A stretch of 24,170 nt of DNA, from positions 1 through 24,170 of the forward strand of contig JAYVCD010000356.1 of the NCBI GenBank assembly GCA_043750125.1, in the 5' to 3' direction. Numbering within the stretch: the first letter of the stretch is position 1; each line of letters starts with the position of its first letter. The translations under genes were made by a program, and so were the position numbers. The notes below the pieces were generated by a model. That model had not been told where the DNA came from and made no database searches. It worked only from the letters and a program-made list of their open reading frames with translations. This DNA is from Archangiaceae bacterium. GTDB taxonomy: Bacteria; Myxococcota; Myxococcia; Myxococcales; Myxococcaceae. Shown one piece after another: positions 2,017-24,170 of this stretch.

Positions 2017-4947
2017 ATGATCAATCGCAGAAACCTGCTTGTCCTAGGTGCGTTCGTTGCCGGCTGTGGCGGGGTCCGCGTCTCGAGCTTCGATGGCGGT
2101 CGCGATGGCGGCGCGCTCGGCGAATGCCACTCTGATCTCGATTGCCCGTTGGGCCGGCAATGCCTGGATCACAGTTGTGCCGCGCCGAACATCCCGGACG
2201 CGGGCCCTCACATCTGCATGCGGGACGAAGACTGCGGCAACGGACAGCTGTGTTTGAAGAGCACCGGCGACTGCATCCAGGTCAAGCCCGTCGATGGCGG
2301 GGTGTTCGATGCAGGGGCAGCTCCCGCGTGCACTGCGCAGCTCGTCCTTTCCTGTGGAGTGAGCAAGCTGGGCGAGTGCCTGCTCGGCACCACGACCTGT
2401 GTCGAAGGCGCTACGGGCTGGGCTTTCGGATCGTGCATGGGCGCCATCAATCCCCGGCCTGAGATCTGCGATGGGAAGGACAACAACTGCAACGGCATCG
2501 CCGATGACGGCCTGGCGGATCTCACCTGCGGCGTCGGGGCCTGTGAGCGAACCGTGCCCGCCTGCGCGGGTGGGGTCGACAACGTCTGTGTCCCGGGGGA
2601 TGCCCGAATCGAGACGTGCGATGGGCTCGACAACGATTGCAACGGGATCATCGACGATGGCCTTGCTCCGTTGGCCTGCGGCGCCGGAGCCTGTGCGCGT
2701 TCGGTTCCCGCATGCCTGATGGGAATGCCGCGCACCTGCAGCCCGGGCACGTCTTCCGCCGAGGTTTGCAACAGCCTCGATGACGACTGCAATGGGGTGG
2801 TCGACGACGGGCTTCCGGTGCTCACCTGTGGCGTCGGCGCATGCGTTCGAACAATCAACTCGTGCGTCAACGGTCAGCCGCAGACCTGTACTCCGGGCCT
2901 GGCGACCGCAGAGCTCTGCAACGGGCTCGACGACGACTGCAACGGCACCATCGATGAAGGGTTGGGAGCGCTCAACTGCGGGGTGGGCGCCTGCGCGCGC
3001 AGCACCCCCGCGTGCCTGCTCGGCGCTGCGCAGGTGTGCACCCCCGGGATGCCCACCCTCGAGACTTGCAACGGCCTCGACGACAACTGCGATGGCTTGA
3101 TCGACAACGGGCTTCCGACCGCCAGCTGCGGAGTCGGCGCCTGCGCTCGCACGGTCTCCAGTTGCGCGAACGGGGTGCCGCAAAGCTGCACTCCGGGAAT
3201 TGCGACGGCGGAGATCTGCGATGGGCTCGACAACGACTGCAACGGTCAAGTCGACGAAGGCCTTTCCGTCGTCACCTGTGGCCTGGGCATCTGCCAGCGC
3301 ACGGTGACCGCGTGCCTCAGTGGAGTGCCCCAGGTCTGCAGCCCGGGCGTGGGGGCGATCGAGCTGTGCAACGGCGTCGACGACAACTGCAACGGGGTGA
3401 TCGACGAAGGCTGCAACTGCACCGATGGGCAGACCCGCTCTTGCTACGGCGGCCCGCCCTCGACCCAGAACGTGGGCAAGTGTCATGGCGGCTCACAGAC
3501 CTGCGTCGGCGGAAACTGGGCCGCATGCGGGGGCCAGGTCGTCCCTGCGACCGAGGTCTGCAACGGCTTCGACGATGACTGCAACGGGGCCACCGACGAA
3601 GGCTTCGGAACGGTCTCGTGCGGGGTCGGCGCCTGCGCGCGGTCCACCGCGGTGTGCGTGGGAGGCGTCGTGCAGAGCTGCGTACCCGGGCCGGCCGCCG
3701 CCGAGACTTGCAACGGCGTCGACGACAACTGCGACGGCACTGTCGATGAAGGGCTGGGAACGGTTTCGTGCGGCGTGGGCGTCTGCGCGCGCGTCGTCAC
3801 CGCGTGCGTCGCGGGCGTGGCTCAGACCTGCATTCCGGGCCCCAGCAGCGCCGAGGCCTGCGATGGGGTGGACAACAACTGCAACGGAACGGTCGATGAG
3901 GGGCTGGGGAATCTCTCGTGCGGTGTCGGCGCGTGCGCGCGGACAGTCGCGGCCTGCGCCGGGGGCGCGTCCCAGGCGTGCGTGCCCGGTGCGCCCACGG
4001 CCGAGGTCTGCGATGGGGTGGACAACAACTGCAACGGCAGCACCGATGAAGGATTGGGCAACCGCTCGTGCGGCGTCGGAGTCTGTGCGCGCTCGGTCGT
4101 CGCCTGCGTCGGGGGCGTCTCTCAGACCTGCACTCCCGGACCCACCGCGGTCGAGAGCTGCAACGGGCTCGACGACGATTGCAACGGGACGATCGACAAC
4201 GCCACCTGCCCGCCGGTCACTTCGTGCCCGGTGGACAAGACGGTCAATCCGAATACGACGGTGACGCTCAACACCACGGCGACGTCCCCAGTCGGTCGCC
4301 CGCTGACGTGCGCGTGGACGGTGGTCAGTCGGCCTTCGACCAGCAACGGAATGTTTACCGCGCCGGGCAACTGCGCCAGCTCGGGGTACTTCGCCGACGT
4401 GGTGGGAAATCACGTGCTGCGCTTCACGGCCAGCGATTCGTTCGGTCAGACGAGCAGCTGCGATGTGACGATCACCGTCAAGCCACTGGGAGATCTGTGG
4501 GTCGAGCTGACGTGGAAGCAGAACAACGACATGGATCTCCACCTGCTGCACCCGATGGGGGGAATGGCGAACAACCCGGCGTCGTGGCACACGCCGCCGT
4601 TCGACTGCGACTGGAACAACCGCACCCCGAGCTGGGATTCGCCGGGGATCGCCGATGACCCGTCGCTCGATCGCGACGACATCACCGCGAAGGGTCCGGA
4701 AAACATCCGGATCAACGTCCCGTCGACCAACCACCTCTACACGATCGGTGTGCACATGTTCTCGTGGGCCGGTTCGCCGACACCCGTCGACACCACGCTG
4801 AAGATCTTCTGCGGAGGCGTGCTCAAGCAGACGCTCACCCGCAGCTTCAGCAAGGTCAGCCAGATGTGGATCGTCGGGACGGTGGCCTTCCCCGGACCCG
4901 GCGGCTGCGTCTTCAACGCGACCGGGACGACGATTCTGGTGCCCTGA
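2017..4947 (+). CDS. Cys-rich repeat lipoprotein (MopE-related putative metal-binding repeats) with C-terminal PKD-like and YfaP/DUF2135-like domains
   Basis: Lipoprotein signal MINRRNLLVLGAFVAG-C; two CxxDxDC small Cys modules; 12 ExCxGxDxxCxGxxD-type motifs; C-terminal GDLWVELTW..DMDLHLLHP..LDRDDITAKGPENIRI. Confidence 0.85.
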   Translation: MINRRNLLVLGAFVAGCGGVRVSSFDGGRDGGALGECHSDLDCPLGRQCLDHSCAAPNIPDAGPHICMRDEDCGNGQLCLKSTGDCIQVKPVDGGVFDAGAAPACTAQLVLSCGVSKLGECLLGTTTCVEGATGWAFGSCMGAINPRPEICDGKDNNCNGIADDGLADLTCGVGACERTVPACAGGVDNVCVPGDARIETCDGLDNDCNGIIDDGLAPLACGAGACARSVPACLMGMPRTCSPGTSSAEVCNSLDDDCNGVVDDGLPVLTCGVGACVRTINSCVNGQPQTCTPGLATAELCNGLDDDCNGTIDEGLGALNCGVGACARSTPACLLGAAQVCTPGMPTLETCNGLDDNCDGLIDNGLPTASCGVGACARTVSSCANGVPQSCTPGIATAEICDGLDNDCNGQVDEGLSVVTCGLGICQRTVTACLSGVPQVCSPGVGAIELCNGVDDNCNGVIDEGCNCTDGQTRSCYGGPPSTQNVGKCHGGSQTCVGGNWAACGGQVVPATEVCNGFDDDCNGATDEGFGTVSCGVGACARSTAVCVGGVVQSCVPGPAAAETCNGVDDNCDGTVDEGLGTVSCGVGVCARVVTACVAGVAQTCIPGPSSAEACDGVDNNCNGTVDEGLGNLSCGVGACARTVAACAGGASQACVPGAPTAEVCDGVDNNCNGSTDEGLGNRSCGVGVCARSVVACVGGVSQTCTPGPTAVESCNGLDDDCNGTIDNATCPPVTSCPVDKTVNPNTTVTLNTTATSPVGRPLTCAWTVVSRPSTSNGMFTAPGNCASSGYFADVVGNHVLRFTASDSFGQTSSCDVTITVKPLGDLWVELTWKQNNDMDLHLLHPMGGMANNPASWHTPPFDCDWNNRTPSWDSPGIADDPSLDRDDITAKGPENIRINVPSTNHLYTIGVHMFSWAGSPTPVDTTLKIFCGGVLKQTLTRSFSKVSQMWIVGTVAFPGPGGCVFNATGTTILVP
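2461..4200 (+). repeat. Intragenic tandem repeat, 150-nt (50-aa) period, 12 units
   Basis: Units start with a GAG codon at 2461, 2611, 2761, 2911, 3061, 3211, 3361, 3553, 3703, 3853, 4003 and 4153. The unit at 3361 is a 64-aa variant and the last is partial. Confidence 0.95.
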
Positions 4948-8439: not shown

Positions 8440-9617
8440 TCAGGGGACGGTCACGCCCACCGCCGTCGCATGCACGTAGTCTTCCCCGGCGGGAGGAAAC
8501 TGGCCGGCAGCGTCGAGACGAAAGCTCCACAGCTGCAGTACGAGCCACATTCCACTGGGCGCACCGGCGGGAATGTCGACGAAGAGGGTGGCTCCGGCAC
8601 CTTCGCGGGTCGTCTTGTAGACGTAGCCTGCGACCGTGACGGTGGTGCCGGTCTCGATGTGCCAGGTGAACTTCGGAGTCGCGGCGCTGCTCGCTCCGAA
8701 CACGCCGCGCACCATCCAATCACCGGTGGGCCCGGTCGCGTGGGGCGTGAGCGGAATGGAAAGCGTCGTCCCTGCAGCGCCAACGGTCCAATCGCGGGGC
8801 GGGTAGAGGGCGTAGTAGGGAATCGGCAGCGCGGCACGCAAGGATCGCCACCCGCGGCCGCCGCGATGTTCGAGTACGACCGCTGGTACCAGAAGCCTCC
8901 GAGCTGAATCCGGGTGCCGATGCAGAAGTCGCCATTCTCCTGAGGGTAGCCCTCGTCGAGCTGGGCCCAGGGGGAAACGCTGCGGGCAGGGGACGTAGGG
9001 AAGAGGCCCCAACCGGTCGCCACGTCGGGGTCGGTCGCGGCTTCGATGATCTCGTGGCTGCCGACCACAGTGAGCCCCTCGAGCTCGCTCTCGAACGTGG
9101 CGGTGCAGCGCTGGACCACGCCCCAGCCATCGCCCGCGACGCCGTAGCCCTGATGGTAGGCGCCCGGCATCGTGCAGGTGGCGTTGCCGGTGAACGCGAC
9201 GCCCGGAGGTAGGTAGAGCAGGTAGATCGTGTGGCCGTCGGGCGTCGGCGGATTCGGCGCCGCTTGAATCGCCGCCGCGATGAACGCCGTCATCTGCGCA
9301 TCGGTGAGCACGGTTCCTGAATTCAGCACGCCCCCGGTGAGGTGCACCGACGAGGCGGGCCGCGAGACGCCGAACTCGCTTCCCACCGCGTCCAACCAGG
9401 GGCTTTGCACCAGCGCGTCGCCGAACGCGAACAGCGTCGCGGTCAACGGCTCGTTGCGGGCGACGACCGTCGCGACCCGCAGCGGCTGGAGCACCTTGCC
9501 TCCGCCGAACGTCAGCTGGGGCCAACCCGCATCGAAGGTGTCCGGGTTGCCGCCGTCGGCGGGCACCGCTGAGACCTGACAACCGGCGAGCAGCAGCGAG
9601 ATGACCAGCAATCTCAT
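8440..9617 (-). pseudogene. Lipoprotein with Phi-1/EXORDIUM-like HExxE domain, split by a one-base frameshift near 8832
   Basis: MRLLVISLLLAG-C signal; GAYH, SHEIIEAATDP, ENGDFC and WYQRSYSN motifs. Reading runs to GGDPCVP in one frame and continues ALPIPYYALYPP...TAVGVTVP* in the adjacent frame. Could be an assembly error. Confidence 0.7.
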
Positions 9618-9659
9618 AGCGGCGAGGTACACCGGACAGGCCCAAAGGTGAAACCGCGC

Positions 9660-11280: not shown

Positions 11281-12708
11281 TCAGGCCCGAAGCGCGGGAA
11301 GGTTGCCCGGGTAGTCGCCGTAGCTGTCGCGGGGAAAGCCCATCGCCCGACAAATCTCCGTCAGCACCGCATTCATCGGGACGTGCTGCCCCGCACTGCC
11401 CCCGGCCCAGCGAAGAAATTGGCCCGTCTTGAAATAGCCGTTGCAGTTGCCTGCGAGCAGCAGCGGAACGTCGTCCAGCTGGTGTCCTCCTCCGGTGCGC
11501 TGCAGGTTGGTGAAGACGATCAGTGTGCGGTCGAGCAGCGTGGCGTTTCCTTCCTTCACATCGAACAGCCGCTGCATCAAATCGGCGATCTGCTGCACGA
11601 ACCATTGATCCACAAGATTCTTCCGTCGCAGGAACGCTCCGCCGAGGTGCTCGTTGTGGGCAATTTCGTGATGCTGAAGGAAGGCCGACGGGCCGCCGCC
11701 AGTGTCCGCACTGAGGCTGCCTCCTGCAAAAGCCGGGTCCTTCGAGGCCAGCCACGAAAAGTGGTACTGGTTGTTGTGCGAGCTGCACCACTGCAATGAG
11801 CCCGTTCGGGTCAGCCCGCACGCCAGCGCCGAGACCAGCATCCCCATCTGCAGCTGGTGGATCTCAGGCACCAGCGGGTTGGCAGTCTCGTTCAAGTAGT
11901 TGGCCGTTCTCGACGGAGCCGTGGGCGCCGCACACGTCTGAGCGACCTTCAGTGCCAGCAGCTCGTACTCCCGCACTGCCGTCAGGTGGGCCTGGCATTT
12001 GAGCCGGTCTTCCAGCCCCAACCGGGCGCAGCTGCGTTCGAGCTGGACGCCCACCAGGTCCAGCACGCTCTTCTTTTCGGCTCGCAACTTTGCCCGTTCG
12101 GCGTCGGTCTGCAGGCGAAGTGCAAACAGCTTGTCGAACAGCTCGACCGGATTGTCATACGGCTGCACCGGGTTCGGCTTCCCCCCCACCGGAGCGCCCG
12201 CGAAGCTCAGGAAGATGTCGTCGCCGCTCAGCCGGTGAGCCCGCTGCACCAGGATCCGCTGCGAGGTCGGCACACCTTCCCGGGCAGCGATCTGCGAAGC
12301 CAGCCAATAATCGAGTGAAGGGCCCCCGGCGGTCAGCGGTATCCCGTCGCTGATTTTCCCGTCGAAGGGCTTGCCCGCAATGCCGGTGTAGATGAAGGGC
12401 ATCGCCGCGTGTCCACCCCCCATGCCCACCGCGATCAGGTTCTTGATGTCGACACCGCCGACCAGAAGAATTCTTTCGCGCCACGGCGTCAGGGGCTTGA
12501 GCGGCGCGTCTTCGGTCTGGGGAATCGCGAAGTCGGTCACTCCTCCGCTGGGCCAGAAGTTCACGCAGCCGTTGGGCCAAGCGACGAAGACGACATTGGG
12601 TGGCAGCGGCATCGGGCTTTGCGCCCTTGCCTGTGAGGCCTGGAACAGGGGCAGCCAGGCCGCGCCCAGGCCGAGGGCTTCGAGCACGCTGCGGCGGGAA
12701 AGGCTCAA
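11281..12708 (-). CDS. DUF1552 domain protein, Tat-exported
   Basis: Start reassigned to TTG at 12708 (TTGA overlap with the upstream stop, GGAG upstream). SRRSVL twin-arginine signal; VFVAWPNG, LKPL, GGGH, SLD, KSVLD, HEIAH, EGNATLLDRT and GYFKTG motifs. Confidence 0.88.
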   Translation of the reverse strand: MSLSRRSVLEALGLGAAWLPLFQASQARAQSPMPLPPNVVFVAWPNGCVNFWPSGGVTDFAIPQTEDAPLKPLTPWRERILLVGGVDIKNLIAVGMGGGHAAMPFIYTGIAGKPFDGKISDGIPLTAGGPSLDYWLASQIAAREGVPTSQRILVQRAHRLSGDDIFLSFAGAPVGGKPNPVQPYDNPVELFDKLFALRLQTDAERAKLRAEKKSVLDLVGVQLERSCARLGLEDRLKCQAHLTAVREYELLALKVAQTCAAPTAPSRTANYLNETANPLVPEIHQLQMGMLVSALACGLTRTGSLQWCSSHNNQYHFSWLASKDPAFAGGSLSADTGGGPSAFLQHHEIAHNEHLGGAFLRRKNLVDQWFVQQIADLMQRLFDVKEGNATLLDRTLIVFTNLQRTGGGHQLDDVPLLLAGNCNGYFKTGQFLRWAGGSAGQHVPMNAVLTEICRAMGFPRDSYGDYPGNLPALRA

Positions 12709-14396
12709 GGCGTCACTCCGAGGTCGAGCGCCCGGTGGGTGAACGACGGGCTGGTGGCAATCGCGACCAACAGCTCGCGAACGTTGTAGTCGGTGCGGGC
12801 AAACGCCACAGAGATCTCGTGCACCGCCGGTGCGTCGGCCGCTGCCTCGCCACGCCCCAGTGCAAAACGCAGCCACTTGGCCGCTACGCAGCGGCGCACT
12901 TCGTCGCTGCCGGACAGCAACTGCGCCAGTTGCTGGGGGCCCGTGAACGGGGAGTTGGCCCCATCCATTCGCATTACCGTTCCGGTGGCGTCGATCACCT
13001 GGTTCGCGCGCATCGTCTGGAACTTGCCGACCGCGTCGTACTGATCGAGCCCGAAACCGATCGGATCCATGAATTTGTGGCAGCTGTTGCAGGGCTCGAT
13101 CGAGAAGTGGGCCTCGTGCCGCTGGCGTGACGTGAGCCCCAGCATCGGCACGGGCAGAGGCGGCACGTTGGGCGGGGGCGCCGGTAGCGTCTGACACAGC
13201 AGCTCTTCACGAACGAACTTGCCGCGGCGAATCGGGTCCCCTTCGGTGCCGTTTGCGAACGTCGCGAGCAGGCTGACTTGAGTCAGCAGCCCCCATCGAT
13301 TCGGCAGCGGGGTTTTCACCGGCACATCACTGGTGACTGCCACCCCGTAGAGCTTGGCCAGATCTTTGTTCGGGTACCCGTAGGTGGCGGTGAGCAACGT
13401 CGCCAATCGACCATCACCTGCGAGGATCACCTCTTGCGCGAAGGTCATGGTTTCCGCCCGCGCCGCGAGCTTGGCCGCATCGGTCAGATCCGGATCTGCC
13501 CTGGAAAGCGAAGTCACGTTTTGCAGCTTGAGCCACTGAACGTGAAACCGAGTCAGGGTCTCGCGCGCCTTCGGGTCGAGCAGCATTCGGCGGGCTTCGC
13601 GCTCGACGTCTTCACGGGTGGCCAGTCGCCCCTGTTGCGCAGCGGCGAACAGCACCGCGTCGGGAACGCTTCCCCAAAGGAAATAGGACAAGCGAGCCGC
13701 GAGAGGAAAAGGCGAGAGCCTCGCCCGAAGGCCTCCCTCGTCGAGCACGCCGAGGTTCAAGTCCGGGTCGCCCAGGTAGAGAAACGCAGGCGCCTGAAGC
13801 ATTGCTTGCAGCACCAGCGCCAGCGCCCGGGAGACAGGGTGCCCCAGGGACGACCGCGCGCTCGCATAAAGGGTGGTGAAGTCGGTGATTTCGTCCGTGC
13901 TCAAAGGCCGTCGAAACAATTGCGCACCGAAGGTGGTGATGAACTTCAGCGCACAACCCGGCTCGTCCGTCGCCGGGTCGCAAGGCAGCAGCTGTCCGGG
14001 AACAATCTTCAGTTGGGCCGCCGAGGCCAGGTCCCCCGCGATGGCGTCCAACCGCTCAGCATCGAGCCCCGAGACCAACCCGGGCGTCGCGAAGCCTGAG
14101 CTTCCCGTTCCTTCTGCAGACAACCGTTGTGTCGCCAGTCTCCGGTTGTCCCCCAGGACGTCGCGCACCGTGTTGTCGAACTGCTCGGCCGTCAGCCGCT
14201 GCCACCCGAACGGGCCCGCAGTGCGAAGCAACCCGCCGGCGTCGATCGGGCTTACCTCGAGCCGTGGCTTGCCCGTCGGATCCAGGATCTGGCCGGTACA
14301 GGCGCTCAGGCCCAGGGGCAGTAGGAGGCACACCCACCGCCCGCCTGCCCAGGCTCTCGAAGAAGGCTGCTGAGATTGAGAGGTGAGCCGGGTCAT
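12705..14396 (-). CDS. DUF1592/DUF1588-type (PSD1-5) lipoprotein with a c-type haem motif
   Basis: Lipobox LGLSA-C; RLTAEQFDNTVRDVLG, LFRRPLS, LQAPAFLY, LAARLSYFLWGSVPD, PIRRGKFVREELLC, CNSCH (CxxCH), MDPIGFGL and FALGR. Start could be 14396 or 14432. Confidence 0.9.
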   Translation of the reverse strand: MTRLTSQSQQPSSRAWAGGRWVCLLLPLGLSACTGQILDPTGKPRLEVSPIDAGGLLRTAGPFGWQRLTAEQFDNTVRDVLGDNRRLATQRLSAEGTGSSGFATPGLVSGLDAERLDAIAGDLASAAQLKIVPGQLLPCDPATDEPGCALKFITTFGAQLFRRPLSTDEITDFTTLYASARSSLGHPVSRALALVLQAMLQAPAFLYLGDPDLNLGVLDEGGLRARLSPFPLAARLSYFLWGSVPDAVLFAAAQQGRLATREDVEREARRMLLDPKARETLTRFHVQWLKLQNVTSLSRADPDLTDAAKLAARAETMTFAQEVILAGDGRLATLLTATYGYPNKDLAKLYGVAVTSDVPVKTPLPNRWGLLTQVSLLATFANGTEGDPIRRGKFVREELLCQTLPAPPPNVPPLPVPMLGLTSRQRHEAHFSIEPCNSCHKFMDPIGFGLDQYDAVGKFQTMRANQVIDATGTVMRMDGANSPFTGPQQLAQLLSGSDEVRRCVAAKWLRFALGRGEAAADAPAVHEISVAFARTDYNVRELLVAIATSPSFTHRALDLGVTP

Positions 14397-14722
14397 TGCC
14401 GTCCAGCACAAGCGGAAAAACGATGACTGCATCGAGCAGGCCTGACGGGTGCCGCCCTAACCGGTTGATGCCTCGTATCATTGATGGCCTTCGGCCCCCT
14501 GGGGATGGTGCCTCGAGGCTCCAGTGCCTCAACTTCGTTCGGCTTTGGCGGTGCAACGACGACTTGAATGAGGCGTCGGGCCGCGTCTTCACCTTTGACT
14601 TCAAATGCGTTTCGTGCAGCAGCCAAAGTCGCTTGTCGGGACGATGGGCAGGCGAGAGGACCTTTTCCTGAGTTCCGGCGATAACCCTCGACTCGCGCGC
14701 AAATCTCCTCGAGGTGTCATGC

Positions 14723-17872: not shown

Positions 17873-18268
17873 TCAGCGCCCCGGACCCAGCGCTTCGATT
17901 TGCGCCTGAATCGTCCGCGCGTCCGTGGCCCGCCCGTCTGCCTGGTACAGGGTGAACAACGACTTGAGCACCGGGCGAAGGTCCTCTTTCATCTTCATCT
18001 CTTCGAGCCGCTTCGCCAGCGCCTCGTGCGCCGGAATGGACTTCGGGTTCAGCGCAAGCACCTGCCGGATCAACGCGACCGCTTTGGTCCCGAAGCCGAG
18101 GTCATTCAAGGCGGTCGCCGCGCGCAGGTAGGAAGCGGCGGCCTCCGTCGGGTTGCCTGCGGCCTTGAGCAGCCCTCCCAGCTCGATCAGCAGCTTGCTG
18201 TCGTTCGGGCGCGTCTCGAGCTCCGATCTCAGCTTGGCGATCGGATCGGCCTTGGTGAAGAAACCCAT
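17873..18268 (-). CDS. Small stand-alone tetratricopeptide-repeat protein
   Basis: Helical repeats ELGGLLKAAGNPTEAAASY and KAVALIRQVLALNPKSIPAHEALA; fits the operon with 14- and 7-nt gaps. Confidence 0.8.
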   Translation of the reverse strand: MGFFTKADPIAKLRSELETRPNDSKLLIELGGLLKAAGNPTEAAASYLRAATALNDLGFGTKAVALIRQVLALNPKSIPAHEALAKRLEEMKMKEDLRPVLKSLFTLYQADGRATDARTIQAQIEALGPGR

Positions 18269-18282
18269 GGCGCTAGGCTAAA

Positions 18283-18753
18283 TCACAGCTCGAGGGTCAT
18301 TTCGACCATCGTTCTTCGAAAGCCCAACTTCTCGAACAGCCGCTGCCCCTCGAGGTTGGCCTGGGCGGTCATCAACACCACCCGGGGCGCGCCCAGGGCC
18401 TTGAGCTTCGCGCACGCCGCAGCCATCAGCTTCGAAGCGATTCCCTGTTTGCGCATGCTCTCGTCGACCTGAATGTCGTGCACCGCGCCGCAGCGATCGA
18501 GCAGCGCATTCCAGTTTCGAGGCTCGAGCCCCCCGTACACGTACCCGACAATCTGCTGATCCCGGGTCGCCACCAGCAACACCACTTCTTCGTCGCTCAG
18601 TTGCCCCGAGAAGAAGCGGTGGTAGCCCTGCTCGATCGGCTCGATCAGCATGAAGCGTTTGGGATCCCACTGGTGATGCAGGCGGACCAGCGCGGCGGCG
18701 AGCTTTGAAACCGGCCCCAGATCTTCGGGGCCTGCCGGGCGGATCTCAATCAT
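18283..18753 (-). CDS. GNAT family N-acetyltransferase
   Basis: IEIRPA, IVGYVYG, VHDIQVDESMRKQGIASKLM (acetyl-CoA motif A), NLEGQRLFEKLGF; ATGA overlap with the upstream cyclase stop. Confidence 0.93.
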   Translation of the reverse strand: MIEIRPAGPEDLGPVSKLAAALVRLHHQWDPKRFMLIEPIEQGYHRFFSGQLSDEEVVLLVATRDQQIVGYVYGGLEPRNWNALLDRCGAVHDIQVDESMRKQGIASKLMAAACAKLKALGAPRVVLMTAQANLEGQRLFEKLGFRRTMVEMTLEL

Positions 18754-19733
18754 CGGGGGACGATCGTCGATTCGCTCATGTGCGCCATCGGGTCCGAGAG
18801 GAATTCCAGCGTCAGCACTCCGCCCACCCGCACCCGCGTGCCCGGGCGCACCGCAGCCTCTTCGCCCTTTCCCATCGATTTTCCGTCCACCTCGGTCATC
18901 GCCTCGGACACCGACCGCAGCACGAAGCCCGTGGCGCGCCGATGCAATTCGAAGTGCCAGCGGCTGATTCGGTTGGTGTCGTTCGGGTCGGCGACGACCA
19001 GCAACACGTCGTTGGCGATCACTCCGTCTTGCTCTTTGAGCCGCCCGAACCGAATCACGTCATGCGAGGGCAGGGGCAGCTCGGCGCCATCGGAAAAACG
19101 AATGCTGGCGGGGAACACCTGGGGGTCATGCCAGTCGAGGGACAGCAGGTCGACCGGCCGCTCGATGCCTTTGAGCGGGCTCGGCTTCAGACGGCGGCAC
19201 TTCAGTCGCAGCCGGACATCGGTCAGGGCCATGAAGGCCTCGCGGGTCAGCCGTATTTCTCCCGCGCTGGCCGAGCCCGTCACCCGCGAACAGAAGTTCG
19301 CCGCGTCACCCGAGACCTGCGCTCCATCGGTCAGCACCGGCCCGAAGTGACAGCCGACCCGCACCCCCAACCGTTCGTCATTCGACCGACTGTCGTTGTC
19401 GAACGCGATCTGCGCCTGCAGCTCGACCATCGCGTTCAGGGCCTCGTCGGCCGAGGGGAAACACAAAAAGGCTCCGTCGCCCGCGGTGTCGATCACCCGG
19501 CCGCCCAGCGGAGAAATCGCGCGGTGCACCAGGTCGACGTGACGCTGCTGCAGCTTGCGACCCGCCTCGTCGCCGAACCGGGCGAAGTAGGGCGTCGAGC
19601 CGACGACATCGGTGAACACCAGCGCGAGGCGCTTTTCAAAGCGACGAATCAGCGCCTTCGACAACCTGTCCTGCAGCCGGATGATCTCGGTCATCGACAG
19701 CCGTTCGGGAAGATCGTCAAAGTCCTTCGACAT
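18750..19733 (-). CDS. Class III nucleotide cyclase fused to a C-terminal FHA domain
   Basis: VFTDVVGST, DTAGDGAF, VRVGCHFGPV and GDAANFCSRV cyclase motifs; IRFGR...ISRWHFEL FHA motifs. Confidence 0.9.
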   Translation of the reverse strand: MSKDFDDLPERLSMTEIIRLQDRLSKALIRRFEKRLALVFTDVVGSTPYFARFGDEAGRKLQQRHVDLVHRAISPLGGRVIDTAGDGAFLCFPSADEALNAMVELQAQIAFDNDSRSNDERLGVRVGCHFGPVLTDGAQVSGDAANFCSRVTGSASAGEIRLTREAFMALTDVRLRLKCRRLKPSPLKGIERPVDLLSLDWHDPQVFPASIRFSDGAELPLPSHDVIRFGRLKEQDGVIANDVLLVVADPNDTNRISRWHFELHRRATGFVLRSVSEAMTEVDGKSMGKGEEAAVRPGTRVRVGGVLTLEFLSDPMAHMSESTIVPR

Positions 19734-19744
19734 CGGTCGTGAAG

Positions 19745-21076
19745 TTATATCCGAAGGTCGTTCGCCGCGGACTGCTGTCGAGTGACCAGGTCGGCGGTGC
19801 GCTCGAGCCGCTCGCTCACCAGCCGCGTCACCATCGGTATCACCGCCGGGTGGTTCAGCACCTTGTCGCGAAAGACCTCGGCCGGCAGGCAGAGCACCAC
19901 CACCGGGCCGGCCGCCTCGACCGTCGCCGACGCGCGCTGGTTGAGCACCACCGAGATTTCTCCAAACGAGTCGCCTTCGCGCAGGTTGGGATAGCGCACC
20001 ATGCTGCGGGCGATGTCGCGGTGGAGCACCTGGCAGGTGCCGCGCAGCAACAGGTACACCGATTCGTTCGGCTGGCCCTCTTCGATGATCGCATCTCCGC
20101 TCGAATACATTCGCGAGGTGAAGTGCTCGGCCACCGACTGCTTTTGTTGTTCGCTCAACGGGTGCAGCAACGGGCTCGAGCGCAGCAAGTTGGCCAGCAG
20201 GCGGTCGCGGTAGAAGCGTTGAATCGCCTCGCCGACCTTCGGGTGTTTGGCGGTCAGCCCCTCGAGGCTGACGCGCGCAAACTCGAGCACGATCACCGGC
20301 CCTTCGGCCACCACCGTCGCCAACCGCGGCGAGTCGGACAGCAGCGCCATCTCGCCGAAGAAGTCCCCCTCGGTCATCTGCGCCACCTTCCGGGCCGGCT
20401 GACCATCGACCGTACGGACCACGCTCACCTTGCCCTCGGCAATCGCATACATCGCCTGCCCCGGCTCGCCTTCGACCACGATCGCTTCCCCGTCGTAGAA
20501 CGCGCGCGGCTCGACGACGTTGAGCACGTGCACGAACTCGTCGCGGCTCAGGTCCGAGAACAACGGGATCACCGGCAGGCTCACCGCGGACTTCACAGGC
20601 TCGATCTCCTCGGGGATGACTTCGAGCTCGAGCGGAATTTCGATTTCGAGCTCGAACTCCGAGGCGGCCTCTTCCTCGCCCAGCAGCGCGCCCACCTCAA
20701 GCGGAGCCGGTGCGGTCGAGCTCACCGCCCGCGTGACCTGGGGCGCTTCTGACGGCCTTCGACCGGCATAGAGCCTGGCCAACGATTGCACAGTGGCGAC
20801 GTGCTTCGGGTCGAGGTTGAGGATCACTTTGCACAGCGCGGTGGCCTTGAAGAACTGGCCGAGGTCGGCGTACCGGTTCACCACCTGGATGTACTGGGCA
20901 ATCGCCTCAGTCTTCTTTCCCTGCCGCGCGAGGATCTCGGCCACCTTCTGCCGGGCTCCCAGCTCTCCGGGAACCGCTGCGACGACCTTCTGGAACTCTT
21001 CGAGCGCCGCGGGCAGCTTGCCCCGGGCGAGCAGCTGGGTCCCACGGTCTTTGTGCTTCCGGACAGCGTCTGACAT
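19745..21076 (-). CDS. TPR plus tandem cyclic-nucleotide-binding domain protein
   Basis: N-terminal TPRs; acidic linker; IPLFSDL..IVVEGEPGQAMYAIAEGKV..GDFFGEMALLSDSPRLATV; second domain GDSFGEISVVLNQRASATV; no HTH seen. Confidence 0.92.
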   Translation of the reverse strand: MSDAVRKHKDRGTQLLARGKLPAALEEFQKVVAAVPGELGARQKVAEILARQGKKTEAIAQYIQVVNRYADLGQFFKATALCKVILNLDPKHVATVQSLARLYAGRRPSEAPQVTRAVSSTAPAPLEVGALLGEEEAASEFELEIEIPLELEVIPEEIEPVKSAVSLPVIPLFSDLSRDEFVHVLNVVEPRAFYDGEAIVVEGEPGQAMYAIAEGKVSVVRTVDGQPARKVAQMTEGDFFGEMALLSDSPRLATVVAEGPVIVLEFARVSLEGLTAKHPKVGEAIQRFYRDRLLANLLRSSPLLHPLSEQQKQSVAEHFTSRMYSSGDAIIEEGQPNESVYLLLRGTCQVLHRDIARSMVRYPNLREGDSFGEISVVLNQRASATVEAAGPVVVLCLPAEVFRDKVLNHPAVIPMVTRLVSERLERTADLVTRQQSAANDLRI

Positions 21077-21779: not shown

Positions 21780-22250
21780 TCAGTAAGCCTGGGCCTGCGC
21801 GTACTGGGCGAGGCGGGTCGCGTTGTGCTGAACCATCGTCTCGAGGTCCGCCTGCTTGGCCGCATCGGACTGCTGGCTCGACTTCAGCGCGTCGGCCGCC
21901 ATCCCCGCGATCTTCAAGATGTCATTGGTGTTGCCACCCAACGCCTTCATCGCGCTGCTGGCGAAGTTCATTCCCGCGGGCCCAATCCACCCCGAGACCT
22001 TGCCCATCACCGAGCCCATCGTCTTGTTCAAGGCCCCACCGACGCCCGTCCCGCCGAGGAAGCTCGCCGCGGCGCCCAGCAGGTTGCCCGACTTCAGCGC
22101 TTCGACCCCGTTGTAGACCCGGGCTGCGATCGCGATGAAGGGACCCACGACCGGAATGAAAGAGCAGGCAAAGCTCAAGATCGGGCTCTTGAGGACCGTC
22201 TTGACGACTCCGACGACGGCACCTGCCACCTTCTTGAGGACGCTACCCAT
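21780..22250 (-). CDS. Hypothetical Gly/Ala-rich amphipathic protein (156 aa)
   Basis: GGAG RBS 6 nt upstream; G/C-ending codons; cationic amphipathic N-terminus and hydrophobic FACSFIPVVGPFIAIAA segment. Confidence 0.8.
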   Translation of the reverse strand: MGSVLKKVAGAVVGVVKTVLKSPILSFACSFIPVVGPFIAIAARVYNGVEALKSGNLLGAAASFLGGTGVGGALNKTMGSVMGKVSGWIGPAGMNFASSAMKALGGNTNDILKIAGMAADALKSSQQSDAAKQADLETMVQHNATRLAQYAQAQAY

Positions 22251-22301
22251 GAGGCACTCCGGTTCAGCGAGAAAAGATTGTTGAAAGGACGACGTAAGGG
22301 G

Positions 22302-22328
22302 TTATCCGAAGCGGTGTGGGGAAGTTGC
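22302..22328 (-). promoter_or_regulatory. Possible sigma28 (FliA/WhiG)-like promoter
   Basis: GCAA-N15-TCGGATAA versus consensus TAAA-N15-GCCGATAA, about 50 nt upstream of the ATG at 22250. Confidence 0.35.
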
Positions 22329-22333
22329 GCTGA

Positions 22334-22750
22334 TCAGGCGTTGCCGCCCGGCTTCCCTCTGCGCTGCTTCTTCAGTTCTTCCTTGAGCTTGGAGTCTTCC
22401 GCGTTCCGTTCCCCCGACGGAAATTCCGGAGTCTCCATCTGCATCAGCTTCGGCTTTGCCGCCTGGAAGTCGGTCTTGGTGGCGACCGTCGCCATTTCCA
22501 GCTCCTGATCGAATTGCCTAATGATGTCAGCCTCTTTCGGGAGCGTCAGGCCGAACCGCTCGCGCGCGACCTCGTCGGTCACCACCACCAATTCCGGCTT
22601 CGCATCGGGGTTCATCGCGAAGAAGAGGACCCCCTCGACGTACTCTTCCAGCGGCACTTCCAGCTTCTTGGCGATCAGTGCGGTGTTCGGGTCCGCGAGG
22701 ATCTTCTTTTTGATTTCGAAGGGATTCTTGGGGCCCTTTTCGTCGCTCAT
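22334..22750 (-). CDS. Hypothetical charged cytoplasmic protein (138 aa)
   Basis: Glu/Lys-rich ORF with typical codon bias, no signal peptide or TM helix. Confidence 0.8.
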   Translation of the reverse strand: MSDEKGPKNPFEIKKKILADPNTALIAKKLEVPLEEYVEGVLFFAMNPDAKPELVVVTDEVARERFGLTLPKEADIIRQFDQELEMATVATKTDFQAAKPKLMQMETPEFPSGERNAEDSKLKEELKKQRRGKPGGNA

Positions 22751-22785
22751 TTTTCAAAGGGTACTGTGGCCACGGAGATCAGTCC

Positions 22786-23166
22786 ATGAAGGTCGAACGC
22801 TTCCAACCCGAGCGCCACTACCCCACGTTTTGTGCGTGGACCCGCTGGTACGAAATCGCGCCCCTGCCGCTTCAGTTCCTGCCCCAATCGGGCTTCGTGG
22901 TCGAAGACGTGGCGATGGGATTCTTGTATCGCACCGACTCGAAGCTGGCGCTGATCGAGAACCTCTCGGCGAACCCGATGCTGCCCCGCGAGACCCGGAC
23001 CCTGGGGCTCGACGCGGTGGTGGCCGCGATCGCCGAAGAGGGGCGCGCGCTCGGGTTCGAAGTCCTGGTCGGCTACACCAACGTCAACGCGGTGATAGAA
23101 CGCGCGCTGCGCCACGGCTTCACGACCGACGATGAGAAATTTCAGGTCGTGACCAAAGTGCTTTGA
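22786..23166 (+). CDS. Hypothetical protein with degenerate GNAT-like fold
   Basis: GGAG RBS; FLPQSGFVV..AMGFLYRTDSKLALIENLSANP...R..GLDAVV...GRALGF...ALRHGF follows the GNAT strand/helix pattern. Confidence 0.7.
   Translation: MKVERFQPERHYPTFCAWTRWYEIAPLPLQFLPQSGFVVEDVAMGFLYRTDSKLALIENLSANPMLPRETRTLGLDAVVAAIAEEGRALGFEVLVGYTNVNAVIERALRHGFTTDDEKFQVVTKVL

Positions 23167-23198: not shown

Positions 23199-24170
<972 letters not shown>

Follow-up and report, generated by a model that had tools for sequence, protein, structure and literature searches.

A 24,170-nucleotide stretch of DNA from an uncultured myxobacterium (hereafter the window) carries an uninterrupted reading frame for P0001, a protein in which an N-terminal helix is followed by a class III cyclase domain, an FHA domain and a tail bearing a threonine (Table 1). 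Directly upstream, separated from the cyclase start by 11 nt, lies the gene for P0002. Its first CNBD retains the phosphate-binding Arg (within R-L-A) and its second lacks this Arg. A scan for promoters and terminators gave no useful signal. Elsewhere in the window, a 976-residue protein rich in Cys, encoded at 2017–4947 (+), carries a PKD-like domain and 12 MopE-type repeats, and at 11281–14432 (−) a DUF1552 gene comes after one of the DUF1592 group. Two long overlapping frames lie at 8440–9645 (−). One begins like a lipoprotein, the other ends like coding sequence, and they are possibly one frameshifted gene; the one frame scanned had no Pfam match. Three short genes without a Pfam match (21780–23166, −) lie downstream of an open reading frame at 23199–24080, which, by sequence type, we take to be thiC-like.

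Table 1 Features of the cyclase locus, in window coordinates
Feature	Position	Strand	Remarks
Class III cyclase–FHA gene (P0001)	18750..19733	−	327 aa; open reading frame without stops
N-terminal helix, residues 14–32	19638..19694	−	conserved; leads into beta1
Cyclase domain, residues 35–189	19167..19631	−	D42, D86 (metals), R125, N146, R150, K188
D42	19608..19610	−	metal Asp
Asp82	19488..19490	−	codon GAC; first base-selecting site (ACs carry Lys, GCs Glu)
D86	19476..19478	−	metal Asp
Gln139	19317..19319	−	codon CAG; second base site, variable in family
Ser141	19311..19313	−	pocket residue; family Ser/Thr/Ala, outgroup Phe/Tyr
FHA domain, residues 228–304	18822..19052	−	GR and SRxH present, Asn-Gly substituted
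Thr323	18765..18767	−	acidic-Thr-hydrophobic tail motif; 120/120 closest homologues
TPR-2xCNBD protein (P0002)	19745..21076	−	443 aa; co-oriented; candidate receptor
GNAT acetyltransferase	18283..18753	−	4 nt overlap with cyclase stop; linked in closest relatives only
Small TPR protein	17873..18268	−	linkage confined to closest relatives

Both domains were recognized by Pfam: Guanylate_cyc (PF00211) matched with 34.5 bits (cut-off 21.9) and FHA (PF00498) with 25.5 bits (cut-off 20.7). The class III catalytic set is complete, comprising the two metal-binding Asp residues, Arg, Asn, Arg and Lys. A first-pass annotation had described the catalytic motifs as intact, and D42, D86, N146 and R150 were indeed present, each residue that it named lying at its codon. 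An AF2 model built from a 124-sequence alignment reached a pLDDT of 95 and a pTM of 0.88, and replaced a single-sequence model that was discarded (pLDDT 44). A fold search with this model returned Ma1120 as the best match (Z 25.4, r.m.s.d. 1.6 Å, 160 residues aligned) and Rv1900c as the second (Z 23.7, 1.9 Å, 162 residues), with adenylate (AC) and guanylate cyclase (GC) structures tied just below. PycC was not among the top rows, although it may be a relative. Profile and fold together place P0001 among the class III nucleotidyl cyclases, as a predicted enzyme. Sequence and model suggest that the N-terminal helix is likely to be a transducer/dimer element.

Base-selecting sites across the family

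The annotation had assigned Asp and Gln to the two base-selecting sites, and both codons were confirmed. It had also named a Lys at the purine-binding position as a finding that would count against it; sequence alignment instead put Asp82 on Lys101 of Ma1120, and Gln139 on Asp157. In the K101E/D157G chain 5d0g the same columns read E and G. Table 1 of PMC6005667 puts the base site four residues before the second metal Asp and the second site seven residues before the Asn, spacings with which D82 and Q139 agree. The canonical AC pair (Lys plus Asp/Thr) is absent from P0001, as is the Glu found at the first site of canonical GCs; the lack of an acid at the second site is shared with canonical GCs. 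By its residues, P0001 thus reads as neither a canonical AC nor a canonical GC, and the Lys/Glu rule by which class III cyclases are annotated gives such Asp-site enzymes no class.

A homologue search returned 1268 matches at E ≤ 0.001, other cyclases among them. Each catalytic residue was kept in at least 117 of the 120 closest homologues, and site 82 was Asp in 119 of them, which argues that this residue reflects neither chance nor sequencing error. Site 139 in the same proteins was Leu in 51, Gln in 49 and other residues in the rest. Because our alignment scan had used a pattern containing Asp, we drew the Asp counts instead from an unbiased, index-free HMMER search of 50%-identity cluster representatives, in which the best 150 matches were listed and 108 rows covered the core. 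Sixty-four of the listed rows formed one monophyletic clade with the query (SH-aLRT 99, from a quick tree only). Among these 64 family members, which represent clusters at below 50% identity, site 82 was Asp in 45, Glu in 5 and Lys in none, and 31 of the 44 listed outgroup rows had Lys. Asp at this site tracks catalytic integrity: it was present in 44 of the 54 listed members with both metal Asp residues and the Arg/Lys (Glu in 4), versus 1 of the 10 listed degenerate members, kin in these sets being non-independent.

The second site behaved differently. Sixteen residue types occupied site 139 in the 64 listed members, Gln in four; Asp was found there once, versus in 31 of the 44 listed outgroup rows, and AC-type Asp/Thr was never the majority in the family. 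The annotation's Asp/Gln specificity pair therefore reduces to the Asp, and we rejected Gln139 as a specificity residue because the site varies among homologues. Asp136 was also rejected as a substitute base reader, since its equivalent is Asp or Glu in 24 of the 44 listed outgroup cyclases and so is not family-specific. Site 141 was Thr in 32, Ser in 16 and Ala in 10 of the 64 listed members, and Phe in 19 and Tyr in 10 of the 44 outgroup rows; in P0001, Ala84, Gly87 and Ser141 together form a small-residue pocket. As read from these residues, the family is marked by an acidic first site, a second site that has lost its acid, and small side chains at positions 84, 87 and 141, Gln being incidental.

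The family occurs in Myxococcota, Burkholderiales, Gammaproteobacteria and other taxa, with one match in each of 17 of the 301 phylum genomes. In a sister subclade (P0143, P0151, P0156 and P0157), Glu-Thr-Thr replaces Asp-Thr-Ala at positions 82–84 and the N-terminal extension is long. Proteins with the domain order of P0001 and the canonical Lys/Asp pair (for example P0263) fall outside the family clade. Separately, we noted unrelated tandem cyclases (P0214, P0250 and P0256) with Asp/Lys at the two base sites, recalling the Glu/Lys pair of PucC.

Candidate receptor genes near the cyclases

We examined gene neighbourhoods at 80 family loci, kept from 253. A CNBD gene was adjacent to the cyclase in 34 of the 80 and lay within 6 kb in 40, against a random-position background of 3.2% (G000, the window's genome); one Archangium-like clade accounts for about two dozen of these loci. 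The partners included TPR-2xCNBD, TPR-CNBD and kinase-CNBD proteins, a CNBD–PilB-type ATPase and one CNBD–cyclase–FHA fusion. The presence of CNBD genes of several unrelated architectures supports an active cyclase with receptors encoded nearby. The fusion, P0139, is a natural CNBD–cyclase(Asp)–FHA protein. In a Vicinamibacterales genome, a CNBD–MshEN–PilB/GspE-type ATPase gene (L043:3957-5969) lies directly upstream of an Asp cyclase, and its product is possibly a cyclic-nucleotide-controlled pilus motor. The TPR-2xCNBD and TPR-CNBD receptor families were found in 157 and 84 of the 301 phylum genomes, respectively (tallies that include G185), and are thus far wider than the cyclase family. 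In the TPR-CNBD family of L008:4605-5870, whose genes usually stand beside TPR-2xCNBD genes, the phosphate-binding cassette lacks the usual Arg.

The receptor motif was uninformative about the ligand. In the cGMP-preferring receptor CgrA the Arg is followed by Thr, in the intact CNBD of P0002 by Leu, a difference that tells against cGMP. However, R-[L/V/M]-A motifs occur beside Asp, Glu and Lys cyclases alike, and in the window's genome Ser/Thr is by default the next residue.

We compared the cyclases that accompany the two TPR-CNBD families at 42 distinct loci, four with flanks of about 6 kb, three on short contigs and the rest with about 10 kb. By hand count, ten loci had a Glu cyclase, two a Lys cyclase, six a member of the Asp82 family (these six picked knowing their family membership) and 24 none. 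At both Lys loci a CRP gene stands between receptor and cyclases. The genome-wide background differed: 120 cyclase rows from nine genomes comprised 104 Lys, 6 Glu and 3 Asp. In all six genomes chosen for a Glu receptor locus, the sole Glu cyclase among those read lay at the receptor locus. The window's genome (89% complete) had no Glu cyclase among its 15 matches, of which 14 were Lys-type, and its receptor gene adjoins the Asp cyclase. A single CHASE2 clade accounts for seven of the ten Glu loci, and the remaining three carry HisKA-REC or HAMP inputs, which gives about four independent cases and more than one origin. The receptor-linked cyclase of G242 retains Glu and Gly and matched Cya2 (2w01; E 5e-57).

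The kinase-CNBD gene of one Glu locus (G151) recurs at Asp loci (L047), at 45% over 484 aa. In two genomes, G217 (17 of its 20 cyclase matches read) and G250, an Asp cyclase and a Glu cyclase coexist, either one accompanied by a receptor, which means that one type does not strictly replace the other. Two others, G183 and G146, have receptors and neither a Glu nor a family-type Asp cyclase among the rows read. In the receptor tree, Asp- and Glu-linked copies were not cleanly separated, with deep nodes unsettled. The shared neighbours make Asp and Glu cyclases appear interchangeable within a single module. This is the best support for cGMP in our analysis: the receptor genes stand beside Cya2-like Glu cyclases in other Myxococcota, so genomic context favours this nucleotide. 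Against it stand the 24 receptor loci that lack a cyclase and the far wider spread of the receptor families.

The arrangement recalls the cGMP modules XC_0250/XC_0249 of Xanthomonas and gcyBC-cgrA of Rhodospirillum, where a class III cyclase gene likewise adjoins a CNBD receptor gene, but cyclase residues and receptor types differ from those here. Three clusters (L156, L157 and L158, at G245:C363, G242:C2 and G130:C230) combine a CHASE2–Cya2-like Glu/Gly cyclase with TPR-2xCNBD, TPR-CNBD, CNBD-GGDEF and lone CNBD genes, and are a candidate myxobacterial cGMP signalling island. Orthology of this CNBD-GGDEF protein to XC_0249 was unsupported, its top matches being generic. CNBD-type cGAMP synthesis activated by cAMP has also been reported.

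Predicted product and its rivals

On balance, P0001 is probably a GTP-preferring cyclase, resembling Cya2 with Asp in place of Glu, and its predicted product is cGMP for the CNBD protein encoded upstream. P0001 would act as a head-to-tail homodimer, by analogy with other bacterial class III cyclases, turning GTP into 3',5'-cGMP that P0002 would receive. Asp82 would take the role of the GC Glu, hydrogen bonding to guanine N1/N2, and its shorter side chain would be tolerated because Ala84, Gly87 and Ser141 stand in place of bulkier residues. Site 139 would give shape only, like the second site of RhGC and Cya2. Guanine in RhGC is contacted by the Glu only, the second residue facing away (PMC7384201), and changing Glu488 to Lys by itself converts Cya2 specificity to ATP (PMC5995499). 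The behaviour of these two enzymes suggests that an acid-plus-neutral pocket favours GTP. Some ATP side activity of P0001 is likely. Output would pass through TPR-CNBD proteins, and in other lineages through kinase-CNBD or CNBD-PilB proteins. Cya2 of Synechocystis, like P0001, pairs an acidic first base site with a non-bonding second one (Glu/Gly), and Cya2-like enzymes share the receptor neighbours of P0001; unlike the soluble, FHA-bearing P0001, Cya2 is a CHASE2-membrane protein, with Glu rather than Asp and 19% identity in the fold match (Z 22.6). In the literature searched, mostly outside subscription papers, we found no characterised enzyme or GC with Asp at the first base site.

The two closest structural matches supply evidence for an adenylate cyclase. 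LipJ (Rv1900c; PDB 1ybt, 1ybu) has the P0001 beta2–beta3 loop, x-T-A-G-D-G, with Asn for Asp, and was deposited as an adenylyl cyclase, so motifs alone cannot decide the product. Unlike P0001, LipJ is a hydrolase fusion; its model NF058673 was the best NCBIfam match of P0001, far under the cut-off (59.4 bits vs 800). Ma1120 of Mycobacterium avium (PDB 5d15, 4wp9; triple mutant 5d0g/5d0h) is the closest solved sequence (E 9e-15) and shares with P0001 a compact bacterial class III domain, but has Lys101/Asp157, no FHA domain and 27–28% identity. Ma1120 K101E/D157G keeps its ATP preference (kcat/Km 1.9 vs 0.29; PMC4215837). P0001 might then read ATP without Lys/Asp contacts, as LipJ would, with Asp82 serving a structural or dimer-contact role; the R-L-A of P0002 speaks for this, as does the presence of the receptors in many genomes whose cyclases, among those read, are almost all Lys-type. 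We regard this reading as unlikely. Both adenine-reading residues were lost together, Lys occurs in none of the listed members while Glu recurs, the host already has its Lys-type cyclases, and receptor genes accompany Glu over Lys cyclases by ten to two. We judge it quite unlikely that P0001 is a dual purine cyclase that forms cGMP and cAMP at comparable rates, in proportions governed by nucleotide pools, metal or phosphorylation. Ma1120 K101E/D157G/A167Y is described as impartial between purines (PMC4215837) and Rv1900c, which has His for the catalytic Asn, as having both activities (PMC4886424), and the small-residue pocket also speaks for this reading; strict retention of the acid in active members, in contrast, points to selection on base reading.

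The annotation had called P0001 active, probably not a cAMP maker, and a candidate GC or a cyclase for another nucleotide. Intact catalytic residues, the missing Lys, the Glu subclade and, as independent evidence, the shared receptors support the first three points, while the LipJ loop and the Ma1120 double mutant keep an adenylate cyclase in play. The last found little support, and we consider synthesis of cUMP, cCMP or another unusual cyclic nucleotide very unlikely. The pocket is non-canonical, PycC profiles matched weakly (E 3e-4 to 2e-3) and BcPycC has an Asp in its pocket. From the spacing, however, that Asp appears to lie two residues beyond Asp82, and the PycC pocket is described as narrowed by Tyr/Phe, Asp/Gln and Arg/Phe, the P0001 counterparts of the last two being Ala84 and Gly87. 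As described (PMC11224242, bioRxiv 2026.08.12.744502), Pycsar PycC and Pucsar PucC resemble P0001 in a class III-like fold and an altered base pocket, but differ in pocket residues (Glu118/Lys195 in PucC), TIR/TM effectors and a defence role. No Pycsar or Pucsar effector (CNBD-TIR or TM) was present among 77 neighbour ORFs scanned, nor was a defence context found near the cyclase, where PADLOC matches covered only the CNBD of the TPR-2xCNBD neighbour. We accordingly rejected P0001 as a Pycsar or Pucsar cyclase on pocket residues and effectors. Most improbable is that P0001 is catalytically weak or dead and mainly an FHA scaffold; a degenerate family branch does keep the FHA GR and SR motifs (10/10), but P0001 and nearly all its closest homologues retain each catalytic residue.

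Few bacterial guanylate cyclases have been characterised, and cGMP has rarely been traced to a gene in bacteria. If P0001 makes cGMP, the Lys/Glu rule would extend to the Asp family, in a neighbourhood of homologues that includes other cyclases, and candidate cGMP receptors would be named in Myxococcota. According to PMC12288465, reports from the 1970s described cGMP as an attractant in aggregation in this phylum, where only a single cNMP-binding protein has been identified by experiment. Being present in 17 of 301 phylum genomes, the Asp82 family does not account for cGMP in every myxobacterium. The putative receptors of the myxobacterial module (TPR-CNBD, TPR-2xCNBD, kinase-CNBD and CNBD-PilB) are uncharacterised proteins.

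FHA domain and tail threonine

The FHA consensus includes an Asn-Gly motif. In P0001, G230-R231 and S257-R258-W-H260 are retained and A278-M279 occupy the expected Asn-Gly place, in line with the annotation, which had noted GR and SRxH as kept and the NG motif as lacking. G230, R231, S257 and R258 were found in 120/120 closest homologues, where Asn was not among the top residues at position 278; among intact diverse members, Asn occurred there in 1 of 35. GR and SRxH are present in nearly all family members, and the Asn is missing across the family.

At 69 of the 80 family loci the tail has a Thr that precedes a hydrophobic residue (and follows an acid in 66), versus about 20–23% in controls; in one family member with two FHA domains, both domains are followed by a Thr of this kind. 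These patterns make Thr323 a candidate phosphosite for the protein's own FHA domain. GarA and OdhI are switched by intramolecular pThr–FHA binding, and by analogy P0001 is likely to be regulated in this way. In this scheme, the target of a Ser/Thr kinase would be Thr323 (or a partner), and binding of the phosphorylated residue by the FHA domain would switch the cyclase, whose activity is probably controlled through these two elements. Kinase genes were not clearly enriched near the family (adjacent at 11/80 loci and within 6 kb at 20/80, vs 17.5%). One does lie upstream in the cultured carrier Paucibacter sp. B2R-40 (L065).

We offer tentatively, as a plausible extension, that this widespread bacterial family reads guanine with Asp, is switched through its FHA domain by phosphorylation of its own tail Thr and can be exchanged for Cya2-type enzymes within a cGMP module of myxobacteria. 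Were this combination of Asp, FHA and tail Thr correct, it would represent a third guanylate cyclase design and would couple kinase signalling directly to bacterial cGMP. In the family branch comprising P0186, P0188, P0189, P0198, P0207 and P0221, the catalytic residues are lost and the FHA motifs retained, and P0188 carries a CHAT (caspase-like) domain as a fusion.
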